Of a stretch of 27,505 nt of DNA, positions 6,123 through 19,984 are shown one piece after another. The notes below the pieces were generated by a model. That model was not told where the DNA came from, made no database searches, and saw only the letters and a program-made list of their open reading frames with translations. The stretch is from assembly GCA_041548245.1 (NCBI GenBank), contig JBFESZ010000018.1, forward strand, positions 1-27,505. The letters run 5' to 3'. Both the position numbers and the translations under genes were made by a program. Within the stretch, counting starts at the first letter, position 1; each line of letters opens with the position of its first letter. This DNA comes from Sulfurimonadaceae bacterium (GTDB lineage: Bacteria > Campylobacterota > Campylobacteria > Campylobacterales > Sulfurimonadaceae).

Positions 6123-6159
6123 TTTAAAAAGGCCTATGCTCTTATCTGGCCTTTTTAAA
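6123..6159. terminator. Probable bidirectional intrinsic terminator between convergent genes
   Basis: 12-bp inverted repeat TTTAAAAAGGCC (6123-6134) / GGCCTTTTTAAA (6148-6159). Confidence 0.55.
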
Positions 6160-6717
6160 AGCGAGGTAAAGATAGAGCATTGTAATTATTTCTATAATCA
6201 GAAGTATAAAGTGAAGAAGATAAACCTTTTCATGGGCATCTTGTATATGAAAGTTATGTTCTAAAAGTTTGTAAAAAAGATAAGATAAGACCATCCCCGC
6301 TAGATAACCTTTCTGTTTCGTAACATCCAAAAAAGTCAACAGTTGTGCCTTAGGTAAAAGTATCGTCTCTGCACGTACCAGATATGAGCCAAAGGCAAAG
6401 GTACTTTGATACCCTATATAGATGATAAGCGCTGTCATATAGCCGTATGAGGCAAGTAGAAAGTAAGAAATCAAAACCAGCATGACCATCTCAACAAGAA
6501 ACGAAATCCTAAAGAAATAGTATTTGTTCAAGATCTTGGTATAAAACTTTGCTATCACTAGCATTGACAAAGCAAGAAGCACACCCCCTAAAGAGTATAC
6601 AGAAGGTTCCAAAGGGGTGTAGATGATAAAGATTGTACCGACAGATAAGCCTAAAAACAGCGAATTAAAGAATTTATACGAGATAAACTTTCTAATATTA
6701 ATACTGTTCTTAAGCAT
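6142..6717 (-). CDS. Uncharacterised polytopic inner-membrane protein (about 6 TM), co-transcribed with the TonB-dependent receptor
   Basis: 191 aa, mostly hydrophobic helices; starts 15 nt after the receptor stop with SD AAGGA. Confidence 0.75.
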   Translation of the reverse strand: MLKNSINIRKFISYKFFNSLFLGLSVGTIFIIYTPLEPSVYSLGGVLLALSMLVIAKFYTKILNKYYFFRISFLVEMVMLVLISYFLLASYGYMTALIIYIGYQSTFAFGSYLVRAETILLPKAQLLTFLDVTKQKGYLAGMVLSYLFYKLLEHNFHIQDAHEKVYLLHFILLIIEIITMLYLYLAFKKAR

Positions 6718-6732
6718 GGGAGATTTCCTTAG

Positions 6733-8703
6733 TTAGAATTTTCCATTTAGACCAATTTGAAATGCACGTTGAAAGTTGACAGGATAAATTGCGTCATCTC
6801 CTGTCCAGATAGCATTGTCTTCATCAAGAAGATTCTGTATTTTAGCAAAAACTTCTATATGTTCATCATATTGGTATGAAGCTGTCACATCAGTTGAGTT
6901 ATAAGCTTCTTGTTTTTGTGACAAAGCGTTTTCAAAATCATCTATAGCATAGGCAGATGAACGGTAAGTATGAGATGCAATCAGTTTACTTTTATTTGTC
7001 GGTGCATAGCCTATACTGGCAGTAAGGTTGTGTTTTGATACACCTGGAAGTCTCTTGTTTTCAATATTCTTGTTAGCGTCTTTCTCAATAGTTGCTTCTA
7101 TATATGTATAGTTTGCACTTAGGTATAGATTGTCAGAAACAAGGTATTTATCATAAAGCTCAAAACCAAGTTTAGACGTCTTATCAAGGTTTGTATTGGC
7201 ACCATCGAATACACTGTCTGGATTAACAATGGATGGATCATAAAAAATTTCATCAGATACATCTGTGTAAAAAATGGTTGATTTGAATTTATTGTTTTTT
7301 ACAAAGTGGTTGTATCCAATATTATAGGTATTGGCTGTCATCGGCTTGATGAATCCATTGAAAAATGTTCCTAAGAAAGTATATGTTGGTGAATAATGGC
7401 TAGTAAAGAAACGATCGATGTCTGCTGCTTGAAATGAGTGTGAAAAACTTGCATAAAGTGACTGCTCATTATTGAGTTTATAGTTGTATCCTAACTCATA
7501 TGCTTCAAGGGTGTCATCTTTTTTAAGGTTGTTTCCTGTACTAGGTGTATATTCATAGGTGACTTTTTCTATTCTAAGTCCAGCTGAAAGAGTATGGTTT
7601 CCATTAAGATAGTTTGCCTTGATAAAGCCTGCTAGATTGTCTTTTGTAGTTGTATTGGAATTTCCTTGTCTTTCTCCATTAAAGACTGAAGTTCCAAAAA
7701 GAACATTTAAATTATTATCAGAATATTTTAAACTCAAGTCACCTGAGTTGTAATCATAGTCTGCATTGGTTGTATAAGCAGTTGAGAAATAATCGGATTC
7801 CTTGTCTTCTAAAAAGATATTGGCGTTGATTTCCCATTGAGAACTTAAATCATATGATAATCCGAAACTCCATAAGTCAGTTGAAAAATATTGATTTGAA
7901 AATGTTGAATCACCTGGATAAGCTGGAGTGGAATCTTGAGTCGGATCAGTTTTGTATTGATCAAGTGACAAAGGATCTGCATAGTAAGTGTTGATTCTAG
8001 TCGCTGCCCAACCTAAACGCAACTCAAGATTATCCACTGGATAGAGTTTGAGGTCAAATGACCCGTTCTTTGAACGTGACGAATCTTTTTTAGTCCCACT
8101 TGAATCAAGATCGCGTTGACCATCTGTTTCGAAATAATCACCAAAAGCAGAGAGTGAGAACAGGTCAGAAGAATAGCCAGCATTAAAAGAGCCATAGCCG
8201 GTATCAAAGTTTCCGCCATAGGCTTTAAAGTTCACGCCATCAAAGTCTTTTGTAGTGATGCTGATAATACCAGCATTTGCTCCATCACCATATTCTACTG
8301 AACCAGCACCCTTTAATATTTCAATCTTTTCAATTGAGTTAACAGGGATTGATCCAAGAAGTTGAGGAACACCGTCGATGTTATTCAAACGTCTGCCATC
8401 AACAACGACAACGATGTTTTGAAAACCATCTCCTATACCATAACCACGCATATCAATTTTTTGTGCAAACTGATTACCATAACTTGGTAAGACTGCAACA
8501 GATGTCTCTTGATTTAAAAAATCATAGATGTTCTTTGATTTTGAGTTTTCTATATCTTGAGTTGTATAGGTCTCAACAGGTGCTGTATAGCTTAGCTCAT
8601 CTTGTGGGATCTGAGAAGCCGTTATTGTTTGTTCTTCTAGTGTGAAGATCTCTTGTGCTATAAGTGAAGCACATACTAGTGACAAAAGTAGTGTTTTTTT
8701 CAT
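6733..8703 (-). CDS. TonB-dependent outer-membrane receptor (possibly BtuB-like)
   Basis: Signal peptide MKKTLLLSLVCASLIA; plug motifs DMRG, VVVDGRRLN, IEKIEILKGAGSVEYGDGANAGIISITTK; NLLD; terminal Phe. ATG at 8703 after GGA preferred over TTG 8715. Confidence 0.92.
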   Translation of the reverse strand: MKKTLLLSLVCASLIAQEIFTLEEQTITASQIPQDELSYTAPVETYTTQDIENSKSKNIYDFLNQETSVAVLPSYGNQFAQKIDMRGYGIGDGFQNIVVVVDGRRLNNIDGVPQLLGSIPVNSIEKIEILKGAGSVEYGDGANAGIISITTKDFDGVNFKAYGGNFDTGYGSFNAGYSSDLFSLSAFGDYFETDGQRDLDSSGTKKDSSRSKNGSFDLKLYPVDNLELRLGWAATRINTYYADPLSLDQYKTDPTQDSTPAYPGDSTFSNQYFSTDLWSFGLSYDLSSQWEINANIFLEDKESDYFSTAYTTNADYDYNSGDLSLKYSDNNLNVLFGTSVFNGERQGNSNTTTKDNLAGFIKANYLNGNHTLSAGLRIEKVTYEYTPSTGNNLKKDDTLEAYELGYNYKLNNEQSLYASFSHSFQAADIDRFFTSHYSPTYTFLGTFFNGFIKPMTANTYNIGYNHFVKNNKFKSTIFYTDVSDEIFYDPSIVNPDSVFDGANTNLDKTSKLGFELYDKYLVSDNLYLSANYTYIEATIEKDANKNIENKRLPGVSKHNLTASIGYAPTNKSKLIASHTYRSSAYAIDDFENALSQKQEAYNSTDVTASYQYDEHIEVFAKIQNLLDEDNAIWTGDDAIYPVNFQRAFQIGLNGKF

Positions 8704-8745
8704 TTGTTTTTCCAATTTAGTTTTTTATTTGATATGAAGTTAAAC

Positions 8746-9072
8746 TTAAGAAGGCGGTGAGATGCCTGAACGGGTTTTTAGATAGATGAAAAAAGTTTGC
8801 GGTTGGAACTTGAAGATCTGGGTGAGTCTGTAAAGCAGTCGTTTAAAATAGCAATTGCAATGGCATGATGATGTGCTTGGAGTATAAGCACTCTCTTGTA
8901 TAAGTTCAAGTTCCTCAAGAGGGTCGTCTTCCTCTTCGAGTGTCTCAAATGAGAAATTACGTGAAGATTGTGTGAATGAGACGCATTGGGCATGTAAAAT
9001 AACGGCAGAAGAGTAGGCACAAATAGCCGATAATGAAAAGTAGTTCTTGCCAAAACCTTTAGGTGTTCTCAT
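8746..9072 (-). CDS. Putative regulatory leader ORF (108 aa) with Cys cluster and C-terminal ...TRSGISPPS
   Basis: SD AGAGGGA before ATG 9072; directly after a canonical promoter; stop 42 nt before the receptor ATG. Confidence 0.65.
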   Translation of the reverse strand: MRTPKGFGKNYFSLSAICAYSSAVILHAQCVSFTQSSRNFSFETLEEEDDPLEELELIQESAYTPSTSSCHCNCYFKRLLYRLTQIFKFQPQTFFIYLKTRSGISPPS

Positions 9073-9095
9073 CTGTTCCCTCTTATAATTTCGCA

Positions 9096-9124
9096 ATCAT
9101 AGTCAAAAGCAGTTGTTTTGTCAA
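9096..9124 (-). promoter_or_regulatory. Sigma70 promoter TTGACA-N17-TATGAT for the leader ORF/receptor operon
   Basis: -35 TTGACA at 9124-9119, -10 TATGAT at 9101-9096, spacer exactly 17 nt. Confidence 0.7.
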
Positions 9125-9160: not shown

Positions 9161-9514
9161 TCAGTTGCTCTCTTTTAGTTTTAGTTCGTAGATATTTGGA
9201 TCTGGCGTAATAAAATAGAGCTCATAGAGGCCAATGGCATTTTTTTTCTTCACAACGGTCTGCATGCCTAAGGATTCCGCCTTTGCTTTTAAAGTCTCTA
9301 TAATTGAAAAGTCTATCGTTGTTATCTCCACAAGCAGATCACCTTTATATCCGGAGTAAGTTCGGATGTCACGGATAGGATAGTCCATCGCAAAACGAAT
9401 CATATCTCTGCGTACACCACAGAGGTCCAGATCAGATGAATGCAAAGCAGATATATTCGATTCTCTGTCCCAGGATGTAGGGGTATGGTCTATATTTTGA
9501 TTCTCATCAGGCAT
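9161..9514 (-). CDS. Hypothetical protein
   Basis: 117 aa; strong SD AAGGAG and a TATACT -10 upstream; no recognised motif. Confidence 0.7.
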   Translation of the reverse strand: MPDENQNIDHTPTSWDRESNISALHSSDLDLCGVRRDMIRFAMDYPIRDIRTYSGYKGDLLVEITTIDFSIIETLKAKAESLGMQTVVKKKNAIGLYELYFITPDPNIYELKLKESN

Positions 9515-9581: not shown

Positions 9582-10010
9582 TCAGCTGTTTTGACATCCT
9601 TTCATTATCTCTCGCCAATTTATATCGAAGTGGGTTGCAATATAGGAGTCGTGATGAGGAACCAGACAGCCTGAACAGTCCTGGTGAATATTGTTCTCAT
9701 GTTCAAAGAGTGCACCGTCTTTGGAGTTGATGGAGCAGTGAGAGTGAATGTACTTGCCCTTTTTAGGCTCAGGTTTTATATTGAAACGAAAGTTAGGACA
9801 GGCACAAAGATAGCAGTTGAGGTCTTCCATATCATGGCATTTGGTATGGGTCTTATAGAGCTCGCAGAAACCTTGCTCTTTTTCAACCATATTTTCATAA
9901 CGAAAATAGGCAATGATTTCACTTTGGCTAAGCCCTTCATCAAGAAGCCTTTGCGTAAGCTGCTGATGTTTGTCTGCATGGGCTTCAAACCATTCACTAT
10001 AGCTTAACAT
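9582..10010 (-). CDS. Cysteine-rich small-domain (zf-like) metal-binding protein
   Basis: CELY..KCH..LNCYLCACP and HQDCSGCLVPH motifs; ATG at 10010 overlaps the upstream TAA (TAATG), preferred over 10031. Confidence 0.75.
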   Translation of the reverse strand: MLSYSEWFEAHADKHQQLTQRLLDEGLSQSEIIAYFRYENMVEKEQGFCELYKTHTKCHDMEDLNCYLCACPNFRFNIKPEPKKGKYIHSHCSINSKDGALFEHENNIHQDCSGCLVPHHDSYIATHFDINWREIMKGCQNS

Positions 10011-10705
10011 TATTGTCCGAGGGTATTCCACATCACCTGTGCACCTTTGGTATTATAGACGGCCGGTGTCCCTCGCACTCCAAACTCATTGGCAAGGGTC
10101 TTGTTCTTCTCTATCTTCTGTGCGAAAAGTTCATGTATCTGTTGGTTCATTGCATGTCGTTCATAGCTGGTATCGCCGTGAGCCATGTCTAAAAGAGCTT
10201 TGGCCTTAGCTTGTTGATCTTTTTGTTTCATCACATGGTATGACATCTGAACAGCATTGCTGTGATGAGAAAGGGGCATGAAGAAGACATAGAGTTTTAC
10301 CTTTTTCTCCAGAGTAGGCCACATCTTTTCGAACTTGACACAATAAGGGCATTGAGGATCAGTAAAGACAATATACTCATCTTTACCGCTTCCGTAGACG
10401 ATATCAGCATCCCTGCGAATAGCCTCCATATCCAGCGGACGTTTGAAATTTTCACCTGTAGATGCATCCATAGCCTCACCTAGCAGTACTACTTTTTTAT
10501 CCTTCGTGAGAAAGGTTGTCGTCAGCTGCTTACCACGTGAAGTGGCAATCTCAAGTTGCAGTTCATAGATTGGACCATGGTCATAGGCTTTGACAATAGT
10601 GATATTGGATTGAGAGAACATCGGTATAGACTTGAAAGGTTTTGGATCAATGTCCCCTGCCAATACAGAGCCGATCAGCACAAGAAGTGAAAAGTAGATC
10701 TTCAT
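10010..10705 (-). CDS. Exported DsbC/DsbG-family thiol:disulfide oxidoreductase
   Basis: Signal peptide, N-terminal dimerisation-like region, VFTDPQCPYC active site, GVRGTP cis-Pro loop. Confidence 0.88.
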   Translation of the reverse strand: MKIYFSLLVLIGSVLAGDIDPKPFKSIPMFSQSNITIVKAYDHGPIYELQLEIATSRGKQLTTTFLTKDKKVVLLGEAMDASTGENFKRPLDMEAIRRDADIVYGSGKDEYIVFTDPQCPYCVKFEKMWPTLEKKVKLYVFFMPLSHHSNAVQMSYHVMKQKDQQAKAKALLDMAHGDTSYERHAMNQQIHELFAQKIEKNKTLANEFGVRGTPAVYNTKGAQVMWNTLGQ

Positions 10706-10738: not shown

Positions 10739-13700
10739 CTAGACATTATAATAGGTCGCATTAGGATGGTAGACCACGAGTGCAGAAGTACTTTGCTCCG
10801 GATGGATCTGGAAGGTCTCGCTGAGCTCGATTCCAAACTCTTCGGGACGTAAAAGTTTAAACAGTGGTGTATTCAATTCAAGATCCGGACAGGCAGGATA
10901 CCCGAAAGAGTATCGTGCTCCTTGGTATTTGTTCATGCGTACATCAGAGAGAACAGGCTTCTCATCCTCACAGATATTTAGGTCAAGCCGTATCTGTTTG
11001 TGCACGATCTCTGCCAATGCTTCGGCCAATTCGACACCCAGCCCATGCACCATGTAATATTCGGTATATTCACCCTTGTCATATAGTGTCTTCTCATAAG
11101 CACTCAGCTTGCTTCCGGCAGAGACACAGGTCATAGGCAGGACATCATGGCGGTCACGATGAAAAAAGTCCGAGAGTGCACGGTGCGGCTTCTTACTTTG
11201 GCGTGGGAAAGTAAATTGATGTTCGGCTCTTCCTATGACCTCTTTTAAAGGTTCTGTATTGATATCGTTTTCGGAGTTGTAGCCTTCACTTTCATCAAAG
11301 ACGAGGAGGCTGGTGTCATCCGAGCGTACAGGGAAATAACCGTAGATGACCGTCGGCTCAAAAAGACCTTCGTCGAGAAACTGCTGTTTTATGCGTTCGT
11401 AGGCCGGCCATACTTTGGTTTCGAGTTGTTTCTCATACTCTTCTTTGCTCAGTCCTTTTGAGTTATACCCCCAACGCTGTTTAAAAAGCATCTTATGGTT
11501 GATCCATTCAAAGGCTAACTCGATAGGAAAGTCTTTTCCGACTTCCATGACACGACGCCCCCAAAATGGAGGAATAGGCACTCTTACATCGCGCGATGGC
11601 ATTTTGATCTCTTCAAATGGAGGAATGATGATCTCTTTTTTCTCCTGCGGGGCTTTTTCAAGTCCGGCATCTCCATGGAGGTTTGTATCGAAGTTGCCTG
11701 CCTCGATACGACTCATCGCGGTGACCCCGTCAAAGGCATCTTTACAGTAGAAAATAGGGCCGTCATAATTAGGACGGCAGAAGTCATCGATAAAGCTGCG
11801 TGTAAGGGCTGCCCCTCCGAGAAGAACAGGAATGGTTATACCGGCCTCTTTCATCGCTTCAAGGTTCTCTTTCATGACCTGAGTTGACTTGACAAGCAGA
11901 CCGCTCATGCCTATGGCTGAGATGTTGGATTCTTTGAGCTCTTTCAAAAAGATATCGAGTTCGACTTTTATCCCCAGGTTGATGACCTTAAAGCCATTAT
12001 TGGTCAGAATGATATCGACAAGGTTTTTCCCGACGTCATGCACATCCCCTTTGACCGTCCCCAAGGCGAGTGTTGTCACACTTGTTTTTTCTGTCTTTGG
12101 AAGATAGGGGTTGAGATAATCCACTGTTGCTTTCATAGTCTCCGCTGATTGAAGTACGAAAGGCAGCTGCATCTGACCCGAACCGAAAAGTTCACCGACC
12201 ACTTTCATTGCGTCGATGAGGATCTCATTGACGATACGTTCAGGTGCGATATGGTGGCGTGCCTCTTCGACAAGAGGGATCATTCGCTCTTTGTCACCAT
12301 CCATTAGCAGTTTGGATATCTTCTCTTCGTCGTTTAGGGCATTATAGGCCTCGTCTTCTGCTTCATTGTCAACCGCCTCCTTAGATGAGAAGTGTTCGAT
12401 AAAGTCAAAAAGAGCCTGCCCATCCGGCTTTTTATCAAAGAGAAGGTTATTGCATATATCCTGATCTTCTTGCGAGATCTTGTTCAGCGGAATGATATGC
12501 TTGACATTGATGATGACTGAGGTCAGTCCTGCTTTGATACAGTGGTCTAAAAATATCGAGTTCAGATACGGTCTGGCATCTTTGTCAAGACCAAAAGAGA
12601 TGTTGGATAGGCCAAGAGTCGTTCCGACTTCAGGATGGCGAGTACGAAGTTCACGGATGGCTTCAATCGTCTGAATGGCTGCATCGCGGTACTCTTCATC
12701 TCCGGAACCAAGGGTAAAGGTCAATACGTCAAAGACCAAGTCTTCGGGATTGATGCCGTGCAGTTTGGTCGCTCGTTCATAGATACGTTCGGCGACTTCT
12801 ATCTTGGTCTCAAGGGTTTTTGCCATCCCGACTTCATCGATGGTAAGACAGACAAGCGAGGCACCGAACTTTTTTGCCAGTGAACAGATGACATCAAACT
12901 TTTCAATCCCGTCTTCAAGGTTAACCGAGTTGATGATAGGTTTACCACCAATCATTTTTAGGGCTGCTTCAAGGGCTGCGGTCTGTGTTGAGTCGGGCAT
13001 TAGAGGAAGGGATATCTTTTGGGCATACAGGGCCATGACTTTGTTCATGTCTGTCGTTTCATCGCGTCCTGCAAAACCGACCGAGACATCCAGGACATGT
13101 GCCCCCGCACGGACCTGCTGCTGTCCGACACTCAGTGTCCCCTCATAATCTTCAGCGAGTAAAAGTTCTCTAAAGGCTTTTGAACCGGTCGCGTTTGAAC
13201 GTTCACCGATCAGTAAAGGAGCAGGGTCCTGCATCAAAGGAACGGTATTGAAAAGAGAGGCCAGAGATGTTGGTTGGGAACCTTTTGGTTCTTTTGGGAC
13301 AATAGATGAGACTTTGTTGACCATCGCGCGTATGTGTTGAGGTGTTGTACCACAACATCCTCCTAAAAAGGCGACGCCGTCATACTCTAAAAAGCCTTCC
13401 TGTTTTTCGGCGAATTCATCGGGTCCCATCGGATAGTAGGTATATCCGCCACGGTTTTGAGGCAGACCGGCATTGGCATGGATAGAAATGGGTTTTCCCC
13501 ATACTTCAGAGAGGGTCTTGATGTGTTTTCCATACTGTTCCGGTCCTGTTCCACAGTTGAAACCCAGAGAGATGATATCAAATGGCTCCAGGATAGTAGC
13601 GATGGTCTGTGCATCGGTTCCTATGAGCATCGTCCCGGCAAGTTCGATGGTAACAGAGACCATGATGGGAAGTTCAGTTCCTCGTTCCTTGTTAGCTGCT

Positions 13701-14233
13701 TCACAGGCATGCAGGGCTGCTTTAATCTGAAGCGGGTCCTGACAGGTCTCAAGCAGGAATACATCGGTTCCGCCATCGATCAATGCCAAGGCACATTCGG
13801 TATATCCTTCGAGCATCTCATCATAGTGGATATGGCCAAGGGATGGAAGTTTTGTCCCTGGTCCAATTGAACCAAGAACGAAACGCGGATGCTCGGGTGT
13901 CGAGAACTTATCGCATTGGCGTTTTACAATCTCGGCTCCTGCTTTGGTAAGCTCATAAGCACGGTGGCCGATCTGGTACTCGTCTAGTACCCAGCTGAAG
14001 GAGCCGAAGGTATTGGTCGTGATAAGGTCAGCTCCGGCAGTCAGATAGGCATGAAAGATCTCTTCGAGGATTTCAGGAGCAGTGACGTTAAGCAGCTCAT
14101 TACAGCCTTCATTACCTTCCCACTGCCCTTGTGTGATTCGATCGGATCGTTCCTGAAGCTGGGTTCCCATAGCACCGTCAATGATCAGTGGACGTTTTTT
14201 GATGGTGTCTAATATATATTGTTTGACTGACAT
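10739..14233 (-). CDS. metH: Cobalamin-dependent methionine synthase
   Basis: DGAMGT, GFNC and GGCCGT (Hcy/Zn domain); IGERSN pterin domain; GDVHDVGKNLV B12 motif; SGLL; RYSFGYPACPD activation domain. Confidence 0.98.
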   Translation of the reverse strand: MSVKQYILDTIKKRPLIIDGAMGTQLQERSDRITQGQWEGNEGCNELLNVTAPEILEEIFHAYLTAGADLITTNTFGSFSWVLDEYQIGHRAYELTKAGAEIVKRQCDKFSTPEHPRFVLGSIGPGTKLPSLGHIHYDEMLEGYTECALALIDGGTDVFLLETCQDPLQIKAALHACEAANKERGTELPIMVSVTIELAGTMLIGTDAQTIATILEPFDIISLGFNCGTGPEQYGKHIKTLSEVWGKPISIHANAGLPQNRGGYTYYPMGPDEFAEKQEGFLEYDGVAFLGGCCGTTPQHIRAMVNKVSSIVPKEPKGSQPTSLASLFNTVPLMQDPAPLLIGERSNATGSKAFRELLLAEDYEGTLSVGQQQVRAGAHVLDVSVGFAGRDETTDMNKVMALYAQKISLPLMPDSTQTAALEAALKMIGGKPIINSVNLEDGIEKFDVICSLAKKFGASLVCLTIDEVGMAKTLETKIEVAERIYERATKLHGINPEDLVFDVLTFTLGSGDEEYRDAAIQTIEAIRELRTRHPEVGTTLGLSNISFGLDKDARPYLNSIFLDHCIKAGLTSVIINVKHIIPLNKISQEDQDICNNLLFDKKPDGQALFDFIEHFSSKEAVDNEAEDEAYNALNDEEKISKLLMDGDKERMIPLVEEARHHIAPERIVNEILIDAMKVVGELFGSGQMQLPFVLQSAETMKATVDYLNPYLPKTEKTSVTTLALGTVKGDVHDVGKNLVDIILTNNGFKVINLGIKVELDIFLKELKESNISAIGMSGLLVKSTQVMKENLEAMKEAGITIPVLLGGAALTRSFIDDFCRPNYDGPIFYCKDAFDGVTAMSRIEAGNFDTNLHGDAGLEKAPQEKKEIIIPPFEEIKMPSRDVRVPIPPFWGRRVMEVGKDFPIELAFEWINHKMLFKQRWGYNSKGLSKEEYEKQLETKVWPAYERIKQQFLDEGLFEPTVIYGYFPVRSDDTSLLVFDESEGYNSENDINTEPLKEVIGRAEHQFTFPRQSKKPHRALSDFFHRDRHDVLPMTCVSAGSKLSAYEKTLYDKGEYTEYYMVHGLGVELAEALAEIVHKQIRLDLNICEDEKPVLSDVRMNKYQGARYSFGYPACPDLELNTPLFKLLRPEEFGIELSETFQIHPEQSTSALVVYHPNATYYNV

Positions 14234-14461: not shown

Positions 14462-16972
14462 ATGCAGAGTCTTCATAGTTTTGTTCTTGAACGTATTTTC
14501 AAGTCTGCTTTACTCCCGATTGTTTTGATTGAGTTGTTGCTTATAATATTGATCTTTGTCTTTGGATTTTTGCAAGAAGAAAAAAATGAACAGTTGCTTC
14601 AGAATATGGCTGCACAGAGCTTTGAAGAGGTCTCTTATCAGGTGACTGAACGCATGAATGCGAAGATCGAACGTGTTCAAAAGGATGCCTCAGCTTTGAA
14701 AGCAGTAATAGAGTCTCTTTTTAAAGAGAGCAGCTATTACAGTGATGCACATCTCTCCTTTATATTTGATGATGGTTTTTTTATCCGGGAAAATGGGGGA
14801 GCCGCTTCGATATATACGACAAACCTTCAAAGGCTAGATGAAAAAGACAGGGGAGTTTTGAAGATACTCTCCATGGCAGAAGTCTCTGTTGATTCGGTTA
14901 TGCAGCAGTACCAAGGGATTGTCGATTCGGCTTGGATCAATATCGGGAAACATTACTCTTTATATTACCCAAGCATTGTCGTCAAAGATGAGCTTTCTTC
15001 CAACCTTGATTCGACACAGCAGAGTTATTATTTCAAAGCAGATGTAGAACATAATCCGCAGAAAAGGACTATCTTCATACCTTTATTCCAAGAACCTTGG
15101 GCAATGGAGCTAGGCCAAATAGGTTCAGTCGTCGCACCGATTTATATCAAAGATGAGATGAAGGGTGTTGTCGGAATGACTTTAACAGCTCAAAATACAC
15201 AAGAGATCAGTGATATCACCCTGCCTTTTGAAGCTTATATCATCCTTTTGGGAGAGAAAGGCCATGTGCTTTTTGCATCAGATGAAGAAGCCTTTTACAA
15301 GGATTTTGGTATACACTCCTTTAACTCCCTGCATAAAAATTCCAAACATGGTCTATTAGAGCCTTTTGTCTGTTCACCGGGCGAAGAGTCGAATTTTCTA
15401 TTTTTTCAAAAGATGCTTAAAGATACAGGGCTAGAACTTGTCTTGATTGCTAAAAAGGATGTAATAAATAAAAAGATCAATGCGGTCTATCTTCAGACGA
15501 GGCAGTATGGGATCATCTCTTTGATTGTGATTGCATTGATTCACCTGATTTTGTTCTTTTTTATCCGAAAACAGGCTAAAGTAGTCAGCAACCTGATCTC
15601 TAAACCCGTAGGTGAGATTGCCAAGATATCCCAGATGCTTTTTGATGATAAGAGCCTTAACCTGCATAAAAGTGATATCCATGAGATCTCCATATTGCAG
15701 GTCAATCTTCGCAAGGCACATGCCAAACTGCTTGAACAGTTGTATTTTGATCTGCAGACGCACCTTCCTAATTTGAATAAACTGCAAATGGATATTGGGG
15801 AGAACTCAACACTGATACTCATCTGTGTTGAGAACTATAATATGGTGAAAAACATATATGGACCCAAGATCGCTGAAGAGGTACTGTTTGCATTGATAGA
15901 GATGCTTCAACAGTTTCCACGTTCACCGATGCAGCTTTACAGGGTAGATAACGATACATTTGCCTTACGTTCAGATGCGAAGGTTCATCTGCAGGATGAA
16001 CTTCAATATCTTTATAACCGCTTGTCGATCGAGCATATCCATCTGGATGAATTTGATATCGCATTGAACTATACCCTCTCTCTTGCTTTACCGTATGCGC
16101 AGAGCGAACTGCCTCTTTTTGCACGGGCGGATATCGCCCTTGATGAAGCACGAAGGCAAGAGCATATCAAATACCTTTCTTATGATGAGGGGCATAATGA
16201 GAAGGAGCTTTTCAAAGAGAATCAGGAGTGGGCGAAACGGTTTCAGTCTGCCTTGCATGAGCATAGAGTAGTACCGTTTTTTCAACCGATTTATGACATT
16301 AAAGAGAAAAAAGTCTGTAAGTTTGAGTGCCTGGTACGCATGATAGAAGGCGATGAGGTGATCCTTCCTTACTTGTTCTTGCATGTTGCCAAGAAGATGG
16401 GAAAACTGACCGATATAACCTTAATGATGTTACGTTCTGTCTTTAGTGTAGCTCAAAAGTATCCAGAGGTAGAATTTTCAATCAATACCTCTTTTGAGGA
16501 TTTTGAGGAGGCAAATCTTATGCAAGATATCCAGACGATGGTTTCAGAGTTTAACATCGATACGCACAAGATTATTATTGAGATTTTAGAGACGGGAAAG
16601 TATAAAGATGGAAAGGATGTGATTGTTATCATTGAAAAGTTAAAAAGACTGGGATTCAAGATAGCTATTGATGATTTCGGTACGGGAAATTCAAATTTTG
16701 CTCATCTGATGTTGATGGAAGCCGATTATATAAAGATCGATGGGCAGTTTGTACAAAAGATTGTAACCGATGTTCAGAGTCAAAATATCACAAAGACTAT
16801 CAACGCATTTGCACATATGACAGGAGCGAAGAGTGTTGCTGAGTTCGTCTGTGATATGGATGTTTTTGACAAGGTTTGTGAGCTGGGAGTGGATTATGTC
16901 CAGGGATATTATATAGATGAACCTAGGCCTGCTAGTGAGATCGGGAGAATGTTGGAAATAGAGCTGAAATGA
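14462..16972 (+). CDS. Membrane c-di-GMP phosphodiesterase: periplasmic Cache-like sensor, degenerate GGDEF, EAL
   Basis: Two TMs flanking a sensor domain; DLQTHLPN and RVDNDTF (degenerate GGDEF); FQPI, ECLVR, IDDFGTG, IKIDG, VAEFV, VQGYY. Confidence 0.9.
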   Translation: MQSLHSFVLERIFKSALLPIVLIELLLIILIFVFGFLQEEKNEQLLQNMAAQSFEEVSYQVTERMNAKIERVQKDASALKAVIESLFKESSYYSDAHLSFIFDDGFFIRENGGAASIYTTNLQRLDEKDRGVLKILSMAEVSVDSVMQQYQGIVDSAWINIGKHYSLYYPSIVVKDELSSNLDSTQQSYYFKADVEHNPQKRTIFIPLFQEPWAMELGQIGSVVAPIYIKDEMKGVVGMTLTAQNTQEISDITLPFEAYIILLGEKGHVLFASDEEAFYKDFGIHSFNSLHKNSKHGLLEPFVCSPGEESNFLFFQKMLKDTGLELVLIAKKDVINKKINAVYLQTRQYGIISLIVIALIHLILFFFIRKQAKVVSNLISKPVGEIAKISQMLFDDKSLNLHKSDIHEISILQVNLRKAHAKLLEQLYFDLQTHLPNLNKLQMDIGENSTLILICVENYNMVKNIYGPKIAEEVLFALIEMLQQFPRSPMQLYRVDNDTFALRSDAKVHLQDELQYLYNRLSIEHIHLDEFDIALNYTLSLALPYAQSELPLFARADIALDEARRQEHIKYLSYDEGHNEKELFKENQEWAKRFQSALHEHRVVPFFQPIYDIKEKKVCKFECLVRMIEGDEVILPYLFLHVAKKMGKLTDITLMMLRSVFSVAQKYPEVEFSINTSFEDFEEANLMQDIQTMVSEFNIDTHKIIIEILETGKYKDGKDVIVIIEKLKRLGFKIAIDDFGTGNSNFAHLMLMEADYIKIDGQFVQKIVTDVQSQNITKTINAFAHMTGAKSVAEFVCDMDVFDKVCELGVDYVQGYYIDEPRPASEIGRMLEIELK

Positions 16973-17923: not shown

Positions 17924-19819
17924 TTAGATATGAAATGAGATATTGCTCATTTGCACTGATGCTTTCATCTGATGATAGTACTCTTCAAACTCCTCTTGGC
18001 TTAAAGGTTGTGCAAAAAGATACCCCTGTAAAATATCGCAGCCATGCTCTTTTAAGAATTGAGCCTGCGATTGGGTTTCGACACCTTCGGCGACGACCTG
18101 CAGACCAAAAGATTTTGCCATGTTCAGGATAATGTTGACCATTTTGTTCTCACCCTTGTGCTGATTGATCTCATAAATGAAAGAGCGGTCGATCTTAAGT
18201 TCGTGTATAGGCATCTTCTGTAGATAACTTAAGGAAGAGTAGCCTGTACCGAAGTCATCCATGGAAAAACGTATACCTAATTCCGACAACTCATCAATAA
18301 TGGCGACAACCCTAGGGATGTCTTCGGCTGCAATAGTCTCTGTCATTTCGAAGATGATTTTGTTTTTTAATGCCTCCGTAAGATAGCGTTTGCACAGGAA
18401 TGTAACATCATCAACAAATTTAAAATAGAAGAGCTGACGCATACTGATATTGATCGAAAACTGTTTTAAATCTATACCTTCGTTGTCCCATTTTGCTAAT
18501 GTTTTAAAAGACTCTTCTAGAATGTAGTAGCCAAGTTCAATCATGAAACCTGTTTGTTCGGCAATTGTTATGAAGGTCTCAGGAGAGACTGAACCTAATT
18601 CTTTATTGTCCCAACGTACCAAGACTTCAGTACCGATGATCTCCTCTTGAATATTGACCTGGGGCTGATAGTTCAGGGATATCTCATTCTGTTCAAGAGC
18701 AAAATGAAGCTTTTGTTCTATGACCAAGTGTTTTTCAACACGTTTGGAAAGTTCGGTATTGAATAAGACTACACCGTCTCTGCCTTGTTCCTTGACCTCA
18801 TACATGGCGATATCAGCCTCTTTGATAAAAAGATTAGCATCAAGTTTCTTATCGGTGAGCAGACTGGCACCGATACTGGCACTGAGATAAAGGTGATGGT
18901 CGTTTACAATGTAGGTCTCTTTTAAAGCATCCAGAAGAGAGTGAGAGATAAGCATCGCATTGTCTAGACTTTCATCTTCGGAAGCAAACTCTTTTCCTAA
19001 AATAACAAACTCGTCTCCACCCAGACGAGCAATAGTGGCTGCTTCTCCGGAAATGTTTCTCAAGCGTAAAGCGACCTCTTGCAGGACTTTATCACCAATA
19101 TCATGGCCAAGGGTATCATTGATCGTCTTGAAATGATCAAGATCGATGAGCAGAAGGTAGGAAAACTTTTTTTCCCTTTCGAGGCCGTTGACTTTTTGCT
19201 GCAGTGTGTCAATAAAGGCATGGCGGTTGAAGAGTCCGGTAAGTTGGTCATGTGATGCTTGATAGTGTATTTTATGCAAGAGTCTATCCGAACTGTGGGC
19301 CCCATAAAAGAGAACACCTAAAAAGATCAGAGAAAAAAGAGTGAGAATATACCCATACAGTTCGTTGATCATAGCGAAGTAAATGGAAAGGGGAAGTATC
19401 AACATCAGCAATACGGGGCGTAATATATGTGAGGCAGGATATAGCAGTGTCGCTGCCACGACAGATGCCCCCAGCTGGGTGAAGATAGCGATATAGTGCA
19501 TGTTACTTTCATTTTCACCAGCGTATAAAATGAATATAAGAGTCCATGAAGTAAAGATAAGGAAATAGAAAAAAGAGAGTCTTTTATGCCAGCTCAGCAC
19601 TTCCGAACGGGTCATTTTCGCGTATTGGAACTCTTTATGCAACTGATATCCCCACGCAGAGAGCACAAGGATCAAAGCATACCAGAATAGAGCAGGGATG
19701 ATGATATTGTTAAGCCAGCCCAATAAGATATAGCCAAGCCCCGGAATAAGGCAGAGGCTGACCATAACAAGAATCTCTTTATGCAAGATCTTATAGATAT
19801 AATAATTTTGGTTTTTCAC
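17924..19819 (-). CDS. Multi-TM GGDEF-EAL diguanylate cyclase/phosphodiesterase
   Basis: N-terminal TM bundle; HDQLTGLFNR, DLDHFKTINDTLGH, intact GGDEF; EVL, DDFGTGYSS, LKIDRSF, VAEGVE, LQGY. GTG at 19819 chosen because TGCTATAAT (19859-19851) lies inside the longer ORF call. Confidence 0.92.
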   Translation of the reverse strand: MKNQNYYIYKILHKEILVMVSLCLIPGLGYILLGWLNNIIIPALFWYALILVLSAWGYQLHKEFQYAKMTRSEVLSWHKRLSFFYFLIFTSWTLIFILYAGENESNMHYIAIFTQLGASVVAATLLYPASHILRPVLLMLILPLSIYFAMINELYGYILTLFSLIFLGVLFYGAHSSDRLLHKIHYQASHDQLTGLFNRHAFIDTLQQKVNGLEREKKFSYLLLIDLDHFKTINDTLGHDIGDKVLQEVALRLRNISGEAATIARLGGDEFVILGKEFASEDESLDNAMLISHSLLDALKETYIVNDHHLYLSASIGASLLTDKKLDANLFIKEADIAMYEVKEQGRDGVVLFNTELSKRVEKHLVIEQKLHFALEQNEISLNYQPQVNIQEEIIGTEVLVRWDNKELGSVSPETFITIAEQTGFMIELGYYILEESFKTLAKWDNEGIDLKQFSINISMRQLFYFKFVDDVTFLCKRYLTEALKNKIIFEMTETIAAEDIPRVVAIIDELSELGIRFSMDDFGTGYSSLSYLQKMPIHELKIDRSFIYEINQHKGENKMVNIILNMAKSFGLQVVAEGVETQSQAQFLKEHGCDILQGYLFAQPLSQEEFEEYYHQMKASVQMSNISFHI

Positions 19820-19984
19820 AGTATGCTTTACCCTTTTCTCTGTTAGAACAATTATAGCAGACAAGCCTGAGCTCAATGATTAAAGTTGGGAAGCGTAGGC
19901 GGTTAATAAGAGTGATAATATTATACGGTAATATGTTTGAGTAAGAGTATCGATCGTGAAGCTGCCTACATATAGAGGCTGTTT

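Follow-up and report, generated by a model that had tools for sequence, protein, structure and literature searches.

What is the function of a 108-codon open reading frame (ORF) placed directly in front of a gene for a TonB-dependent receptor (TBDR)? The ORF (protein P0001) lies on the minus strand at 8746..9072 (ATG 9072..9070, stop TAA 8748..8746) of a 27,505-nucleotide stretch of DNA from a Sulfurimonadaceae bacterium (GCA_041548245.1, contig JBFESZ010000018.1, positions 1 to 27,505). The whole stretch is called the window below, and its features are on the minus strand unless a strand is given. An initial annotation had proposed that the ORF encodes a ligand-sensing, ribosome-arresting leader peptide, and the signals that it described are present. 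A promoter-like TTGACA-17-TATGAT (9096..9124; 11/12 consensus matches), whose usage is predicted by consensus alone, stands 5′ of the ORF, and a Shine-Dalgarno (SD)-like AAGAGGGA (9077..9084) ends 4 nt 5′ of the ATG. The stop codon is followed by a 42-nt A-rich spacer (8704..8745), in which GGA at 8713..8711 is the SD of the receptor. A promoter-like site was searched for in this gap (8745..8704) and none was found, as the annotation had said. A weak site, TTGAAC-17-TATACT (8881..8909; 9/12 matches), lies inside the ORF and could be the source of a leader-independent receptor transcript. The peptide also has the features ascribed to it, namely a basic start, a weakly hydrophobic, Cys-containing SLSAICAYSS.. 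segment, an acidic tract, a C-H-C-N-C Cys/His cluster at residues 70-74 (8851..8865) and the ending ..TRSGISPPS. From the comparisons below, we somewhat favour the reading that the leader is a cis-acting regulatory pausing peptide of a new Campylobacterota family, which would report B12 status. For this leader, pausing, the B12 response and the mode of ligand sensing are what we infer.

The leader is a real gene, and selection acts on its peptide and not on its RNA. A protein collection contained 63 relatives of 94-149 aa and 35-90% identity, all named at most "hypothetical". An alignment of 33 of the 64 sequences (A1) shows invariant G6, F7, N10, Y11, F12, L14, I17, P106 and P107, and a near-invariant HCNC. 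The N-terminal motif (N-motif) was then used as a DNA pattern, with the Pro-Pro outside that pattern, to scan one genome per species; 240 stretches encode a relative, and the best 80 of them were used for the locus analyses (alignment A2). Over 296 pairs, the median dN was 0.237, the median dS 1.5 and the median dN/dS 0.156, and every pair was below 1. In columns where a residue is at least 90% conserved, entropy reached 1.26 bits at third codon positions versus 0.145 bits at first and 0.055 bits at second positions. Third-position entropy is high and near saturation over the entire ORF, and thus no embedded conserved RNA is visible. All synonymous codons are in use for the invariant Gly, Phe, Lys, Asn, Tyr and Pro residues, and all four Pro codons occur at both Pro-Pro positions. 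CCG is found at the first Pro in 25/80 loci versus a background of 21% (p = 0.04, rows not independent), a difference too weak to use.

The family is confined, as far as seen, to Campylobacterota. The record titles of 78/80 loci name lineages of this phylum (Sulfurimonas, Sulfurovum, Arcobacter/Halarcobacter, Sulfurospirillum, Sulfuricurvum, and metagenome-assembled genomes of Helicobacteraceae and Campylobacteraceae), and the remaining 2 carry no lineage. A word-free profile search with a hidden Markov model (HMM) against 1.84 billion representatives gave 190 clusters (50% identity) at E<=0.001 and 101 at E<=1e-10. It also recovered looser forms of the N-motif, [KR]G[FY]xxxYFxLxAI; 10 divergent relatives are G+C-richer. 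The family was found in 98/301 Campylobacterota genomes, being near-universal in some families (22/23, 12/15, 6/6, 11/11 and 4/4) and rare in one (2/90). The genome from which the window comes has a single copy.

Conservation along the peptide is concentrated in three places. Mean pairwise column identity in A2 is 0.78 for the N-motif (residues 4-19, P-K-G-F-G-K-N-Y-F-S-L-S-A-I..; 9016..9063), 0.72 for CHCNCYF (residues 70-76) and 1.0 for the Pro-Pro, compared to 0.23-0.36 for the other segments and 0.12 for the tail. The N-motif served as search pattern, and its invariance in the 80 loci is therefore partly by construction. The frame is open through a Pro-Pro in 79/80 loci, the exception being L034, where it is stopped early. 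In the window these residues are Pro106-Pro107 (CCG CCT; 8752..8757), the proposed pause site. CxC is present in 79/80 rows, and the first CxC is separated from the Pro-Pro by 33 residues in 40 of these, by 36 in 27, by 31 in 9 and by other distances in 3. In our reading, the distance from the last Cys to the Pro-Pro is 31-34 residues, about one exit-tunnel length; in the window, 31 residues lie between Cys74 and Pro106, in agreement with the roughly 30 first estimated. Residues 77-105 (8758..8844), which would occupy the exit tunnel with the ribosome on the Pro-Pro, are conserved inside subfamilies (..RSGIS, ..NNAIS, ..FAFRRTGVH). The subfamily comparison also showed that the region of the acidic tract (residues 43-56; 8905..8946) bears (D/S/T)-P-P in other subfamilies.

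Beyond the Pro-Pro, tails are unconserved and range from 0 to 59 residues, most having at most 12. In L044:403-2724 (=L012) and L087:13-2355, a stopless leader frame even enters the receptor in frame, with the SD and ATG of the receptor retained, and P0121 similarly appears to be continuous with its receptor. Across the loci, the Pro-Pro is thus the one element that is universal, and the conserved peptide effectively ends there. Conservation of the terminal SGISPP and of the Cys residues had been suggested as a check of the leader-peptide proposal. Pro-Pro and CxC withstood it; SGISPP turned out to be one of several endings, the commonest seven-residue forms being RTGVHPP (22), NNAISPP (11), RSGISPP (10) and NTSISPP (7). 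A fixed Cys-to-Pro-Pro distance, an invariant Pro-Pro and a dispensable tail make up the comparative signature of an arrest or pausing leader. This signature supports the initial suggestion of a new arrest-peptide-like family in Campylobacterota.

Shorter forms of the leader also exist. Half-length variants were found at L124:3857-4015, L127:3915-4070, L121:1498-1656, L120:1492-1680, L123:3974-4174 and L125:2956-3105, and in L128 and L129. Those of the N-motif type consist of the N-motif and ..SPP or DPP alone (52-62 aa) and precede TBDR-BtuF-like-ABC or CbiM genes; in complete genomes, a 52-aa leader (N-motif and ..SPP) precedes TBDR-BtuF-like-ABC and a 62-aa leader precedes CbiM. Leaders corresponding to the C-terminal half (CxC ... 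RRSG-x-HPP) precede MetE and occur in 31/63 genomes of one genus-level group.

The N-motif was also observed at the start of the signal peptides of B12-context receptors that have no separate leader (L008:1318-3324, L119:1495-3183, L130:2362-4218 on the minus strand, and P0208). Receptors of this type adjoin unk200, the family of the membrane protein that closes the operon of the window, and a small P-loop protein resembling an adenosyltransferase. That the N-motif starts true receptor signal peptides suggests that the 5′ end of a receptor gene gave rise to the leader, and export of the leader nascent chain is possible on the same grounds. The maximal 10-residue hydropathy of the leaders has a median of 1.35, and 2/80 reach 2.0; the window copy, with 2.02, is at the top of the range. 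For receptor signal peptides of the same loci the median is 2.36, and 51/51 reach 2.0. The ..HAQC of the window leader was considered as a lipoprotein signal and rejected, as this Cys is not kept in other subfamilies. An AlphaFold2 (AF2) model of the leader built with 80 sequences has four helices and no globular fold (pLDDT 67.8, pTM 0.30), with low confidence at residues 42-47. ESM Atlas scores for the leader were 0.85-0.87, under the 0.9 line, and provide leads only. PDB sequence searches with the leader profile, and with the 191-aa and 149-aa proteins described below, returned nothing usable.

The distance between the Pro-Pro and the next gene is constrained. The next ATG lies 45-54 nt past the Pro-Pro codons in 29/77 unique loci with a downstream gene, and 48 nt past them in the window. 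In the 48 short-gap loci (<=72 nt), the standard deviation was 8.9 nt for the Pro-Pro-to-ATG distance and 19.9 nt for the stop-to-ATG distance. The stop-to-start distance, whose conservation the initial annotation had proposed to check, is therefore the looser of the two, and it is the Pro-Pro that keeps its place relative to the next start. The spacers are A-rich, contain 4.6% G versus a background of 19%, and are devoid of a stable fold (mean z -0.52).

The Pro-Pro codons of the window lie in a C-rich, G-poor tract (8722..8842), with 35 C versus 11 G in 121 nt by hand count, which is a possible Rho loading site. Such tracts are a substrate for Rho loading. As a family average, the C/G ratio is 3.2, 4.4, 2.5 and 3.2 in four 30-nt windows from -90 to +30 around the Pro-Pro end, and about 0.8-1.1 further downstream. 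The RNA around the proposed pause site may also pair with the next SD, the duplex averaging -5.09 kcal/mol versus -3.26 kcal/mol for control windows. This advantage is modest and inherent to any CCN-CCN beside AGGA, and we judged SD sequestration to be a secondary mechanism.

Terminator-based attenuation was rejected as a general mechanism, since terminator-like hairpins were found in 8/27 long-gap loci and 0/48 short-gap loci. Codon runs of the attenuation-leader type were looked for in the window leader and none was found. In four metE loci (L045, L053, L052 and L063), terminator-like hairpins with T runs lie between the leader and metE, and attenuation may be used in some lineages. Four other loci (L100, L090, L075 and L099) have 160-211-nt spacers with a tandem ~22-nt repeat (..GTCATTGCGAG..), and the leader frame reads through such repeat-bearing spacers for up to 59 codons.

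The ligand is suggested by the genes that the leader precedes. All ORFs of the 80 loci were clustered, and the clusters were named with Pfam and NCBIfam and mapped. The first downstream gene encodes a TBDR in 42/80 loci, MetE in 27/80, an OprD-like porin in 4/80 and another protein in 2/80; in 5/80 there is none because of a contig end or a gene on the opposite strand. The receptor loci include the operons TBDR-BtuF-like-ABC-FecCD (14 loci), TBDR-unk200-unk153-CobQ (6), TBDR-CobT-like-CobQ (4) and TBDR-CobT-like-CobU-CobS (2). The porin is followed by CbiM (4 loci), and MetE stands alone or with unrelated genes (27 loci). At least one B12-regulon gene is present in the co-directional run of 63/80 loci, the neighbouring families being Peripla_BP_2, FecCD, ABC, CobQ, CobT-like, CobU, CobS and CbiM. 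The leader is always operon-first, and its upstream neighbours differ between loci. MetE neighbours scored above the curated equivalog cut-off in 3/3 cases tested (about 1010 vs 929.95 bits). Four receptors of 600-634 aa matched the TonB-B12 model best, with 211-300 bits, under the cut-off of 599.7.

Judged by these neighbours, the leader family heads genes that are elsewhere under cobalamin riboswitch control. The cobalamin riboswitch itself (RF00174) was found in 0/41 genomes (that of the window and its relatives) and in 0/151 genomes across Campylobacterota, two samples that overlap; the same search gave matches in 7/14 named control genomes. No Rfam cobalamin riboswitch was found in the window at gathering score, nor in 8 loci at E<=5. 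Riboswitches as such are present in these genomes, since permissive Rfam scans detected a TPP riboswitch (75.3 bits) at L047:3777-3882 (minus strand), where it precedes thiC and is divergent from the leader-metE unit. The leader may thus be a peptide-based stand-in for the cobalamin riboswitch across Campylobacterota. A more far-reaching version of this idea is that a modular nascent peptide, made of the N-motif and/or the CxC module, each ended by a Pro-Pro, replaced the riboswitch, reads corrinoid status directly on the ribosome, and controls metE together with the genes for btuB-like receptors, for the transport of B12, for the uptake of cobalt and for cobamide salvage. We put this version forward tentatively, as possible and still doubtful.

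How could such a leader act? It would be transcribed from its own promoter and translated, as its conserved coding frame indicates. The ribosome would pause once its P and A sites hold the invariant Pro-Pro codons; at that point the ~30 residues before them would fill the exit tunnel, and the Cys/His cluster would be located at the tunnel exit. This cluster would then be the obvious candidate for the B12-sensing site. The paused ribosome would stand ~48 nt ahead of the receptor start, in the middle of the unstructured C-rich, G-poor tract of ~120 nt. Its presence would keep the downstream genes on, most likely by shielding the place where Rho would load, as in the leader systems CruR and TnaC. 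Alternatively, the pause would free the SD of the next gene, a principle known from CutF and SecM; here the receptor SD would be released from the anti-SD-like Pro codons. When B12 (corrinoid) is sufficient, the pause would be relieved, the ribosome would proceed to the next stop and the downstream genes would be turned off. This last step is suggested by the regulon content together with the logic of CruR, in which copper relieves the arrest and Rho then terminates (PMC9426467). Such logic fits a regulon that needs to be off when its ligand is plentiful.

The signal might instead be a metal. In a CruR/CutF-type sensor, the Cys/His cluster would bind cobalt, or else copper or zinc, perhaps once the peptide is exported, and thereby alter pausing at the Pro-Pro. 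Clusters such as C-H-C-N-C are typically found in metal sites, and this one lies at a fixed distance from the Pro-Pro, as does CXXC from RAPP in CruR; four loci head porin-CbiM cobalt-uptake operons, and the 62-aa variant precedes CbiM. Furthermore, some CutF-like groups neighbour Ni/Co genes (PMC9973294), Atlas leads at 0.85, below the 0.9 line and leads only, point to DUF2946-containing and CzcI clusters, and the N-motif also begins real receptor signal peptides. However, MetE, BtuF-like-ABC-FecCD and CobT-like/CobU/CobS/CobQ are B12 genes and not metal genes, no copper gene was seen among the neighbours in the 80 loci, and the leader occurs in variants without the Cys cluster. Its N-terminal hydropathy is well under that of receptor signal peptides. 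Moreover, no match to the DUF2946 HMM was obtained, either for P0001 (0 Pfam families at E<=1) or for the A1 members (0/33), whose Pfam matches were spurious only, such as Condensin2nSMC in 4/33. We consider a metal sensor unlikely. Kinship with CruR and DUF2946, to whose layout the initial annotation had likened the leader, is not borne out either, as the leader lacks an HMM match, CXXC and RAPP and has no copper genes nearby. The metal ligand implied by this comparison, B12 having been just one of the ligands listed, does not suit a set of genes that is the B12 regulon and includes the cytoplasmic enzyme MetE. The assignment of the leader is thus revised, on comparative grounds, from copper and CruR to the B12 regulon.

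Purifying selection over the full length, the four predicted helices and an N-motif too invariant for a mere spacer would also suit a small protein acting in trans, for example a B12/cobalt handling factor or an exported peptide, that is co-transcribed with B12 genes and in which the Pro-Pro is structural. Such a protein would not explain why the tail after the Pro-Pro is free, with 0-59 residues or an in-frame fusion with the receptor, while the spacing from the Pro-Pro to the next start is constrained. The leader invariably comes first in the operon, although the proteins encoded next belong to three different compartments. It has no globular fold in the AF2 model, and half-length variants of it exist; we regard a role in trans as quite unlikely. 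It is very unlikely that the mRNA itself reads the signal, as an undescribed B12 riboswitch or a protein-binding site, with an ORF that is incidental or only couples translation. The controlled genes are exactly those of cobalamin riboswitches, and the Pro codons can pair with the downstream SD, a duplex signal expected from any Pro-Pro beside any SD. Against an RNA sensor stand the lack of a Rfam cobalamin match even at E<=5, the use of all synonymous codons with third positions near saturation along the ORF, a frame of ~100 codons kept open in A+T-rich DNA at 79/80 loci, and a spacer without a stable fold.

A regulatory pausing peptide that reports B12 status accounts best for these data, and several points weigh against it. 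The evidence for pausing, B12 responsiveness and regulation is comparative throughout. Locus counts overstate independence, as the 80 loci were found with the N-motif pattern and are mutually related. Three positions ahead of the last Pro, the 80 leaders have I, V, S, T or L and never Arg; since the Arg of RAPP-type peptides is absent, strong intrinsic arrest is not expected under the known rules. Plain X-P-P pauses are normally relieved by elongation factor P (EF-P). The composition of the peptide could by itself account for the C-rich, G-poor tract. No single candidate ligand site is universal, because the Cys cluster is missing in the variants L121, L124 and L127 and the N-motif in L123, L125, L128 and L129. 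Finally, the window receptor scores higher on heme (130.7 bits) and siderophore (128 bits) models than on TonB-B12, all below the cut-offs, and the window operon has no recognised B12 gene downstream, so that its B12 link is made through orthology and the neighbouring metH.

In the window, the leader is followed by the TonB-dependent receptor (656 aa, Plug and barrel; 6733..8703, ATG 8703) and by a 191-aa six-helix membrane protein (unk200; 6142..6717), the last operon gene, which has no Pfam or NCBIfam match. The receptor is the best TonB-B12 match of its genome (about 91.6 bits, sub-threshold), and its orthologues precede CobT-like/CobU/CobS/CobQ genes. In this genome of 96% completeness MetH was found, and searches for MetE, CobS and Peripla_BP_2 (BtuF-like) gave none. 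The genome thus looks dependent on imported B12, and the receptor and the six-helix protein are probably its own B12 uptake system. Unk200 follows the receptor in 11/80 loci. Its AF2 model (pLDDT 86, pTM 0.82) has six helices, like half a major facilitator superfamily (MFS) transporter, with weak Foldseek scores (TMq about 0.6, E about 0.07-0.1). As no BtuF-like protein was found in the genome, the 191-aa protein may be an unrecognised inner-membrane B12/corrinoid transporter, and it is a candidate for the inner-membrane partner of the receptor.

Four same-strand genes lie upstream of the leader. They encode MetH with all B12-binding domains (10739..14233), a DsbG-like thioredoxin, a Cys-rich 149-aa protein (9582..10031; weak PF04071 match, E = 0.027) and a 117-aa protein (9161..9514) that recurs in 6 of 80 loci. 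The 149-aa family is present in 17/80 loci, where its genes separate metH from the leader or belong to TBDR-unk200-unk153-CobQ operons. By their positions, the 149-aa and 117-aa proteins are B12-context genes. Two GGDEF/EAL proteins flank the region (14462..16972 on the plus strand and 17924..19876 on the minus strand). In other loci, too, GGDEF genes often stand next to the leader in divergent orientation (a cluster of 16), a neighbourhood that probably reflects shared ancestry. The one RNA run with any part of the window, X15 (share 0.05), yielded three short pieces of contig that lie within the receptor gene, with <99% likeness, and they are uninformative on transcription and ends.

Riboswitches are the textbook mode of B12 control. 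In the 151 genomes sampled from this phylum no cobalamin riboswitch was found, and a conserved leader that ends in Pro-Pro precedes the same genes instead. If a B12 response is true, the ligands sensed by leader peptides, so far amino acids, antibiotics and copper, would come to include a large cofactor; should corrinoid be read directly on the ribosome, this leader would be the first nascent chain to sense a vitamin cofactor. It would also make a non-RAPP pausing sequence available for study and explain how B12 uptake is tuned against MetE use in Sulfurimonas, Sulfurovum, Arcobacter-like and related bacteria. The leader would moreover serve as a marker for unassigned B12-related genes, such as those of the six-helix, the Cys-rich 149-aa and the 117-aa proteins.

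Among known systems, the closest in layout is CruR of Bordetella pertussis (Bp2923, DUF2946), which lies upstream of the TonB-dependent transporter BfrG (PMC9426467), as the initial annotation correctly recounted. Like CruR, the leader is the small first ORF of a TonB-receptor operon; its Cys motif keeps its distance to a Pro-Pro close to the C-terminus, and the short tail beyond is dispensable. The logic proposed for it is also the same, the pause meaning on, the ligand relieving it and Rho terminating. Unlike CruR, it has C-x-C-x-C/HCNC and not CXXC, and a Cys-to-Pro-Pro spacing of 31-34 residues and not the 45 that separate CXXC from RAPP (PMC9426467). It ends in I/V-S/A/H-P-P whereas CruR has R-A-P-P, its N-terminus is less hydrophobic than a signal peptide, and B12 genes and not copper genes follow. 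The gap to the downstream gene is 42 nt in the window, compared to 162 nt for CruR as quoted in PMC9973294.

In CutF, a pause at a proline motif melts a stem-loop covering the SD of the next gene (PMC9973294; bioRxiv 10.1101/2025.02.05.636593), and a Sec signal peptide is required to sense periplasmic copper (PMC9973294). With its 108 aa, Pro106-Pro107 and 42-nt gap, the leader agrees with this part of the CutF-like working definition of PMC9973294, some tails in the family reaching 59 residues. The definition also includes an N-terminal signal peptide, which is doubtful for the leader, and, unlike in CutF, the short spacers have no predicted stem-loop. The leader shares with the RAPP/RGPP/RAGP peptides (ApdA, ApdP, SecM) a C-terminal x-x-P-P core, a family-specific upstream segment and a variable tail, and, like it, peptides of this class are encoded by ORFs upstream of TonB receptors in Gram-negative bacteria (PMC12992588). 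However, the Arg of the R-A-P-P/R-G-P-P/R-A-G-P core is absent at that position in all 80 leaders. This Arg is essential in RAPP-type peptides, and R139A abolishes the arrest of CruR (PMC12992588).

We found no B12-sensing leader or arrest peptide in the literature, although members of the family may figure uncommented in large CutF-like lists. The main text of PMC9973294 does not mention cobalamin, B12, metE or Campylobacter, and the supplementary files searched for PMC9973294 and PMC12992588 have no entry for Sulfurimonas, Sulfurovum, Arcobacter, cobalamin or methionine synthase. The survey of PMC12992588 covered RAPP and RGPP only and would thus have missed this family.

Unlike trpL-type leaders, the leader has no codon runs and no terminator-like hairpin in the short-gap loci. 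TnaC, the tryptophan-sensing leader of tna, has 24 residues and stalls at termination, free tryptophan being sensed inside the tunnel. As proposed for our leader, a stalled ribosome hides a Rho loading site beside the leader end in response to a small molecule; B12 is, however, much larger than tryptophan, and the pause of the leader would fall in elongation. With the cobalamin riboswitch (RF00174), finally, the leader shares the genes it heads (btuB-like, btuFCD-like, cbiM, cob salvage and metE) and its position at the operon head. What differs is the nature of the element, which is a peptide under protein-level selection and not a structured RNA.

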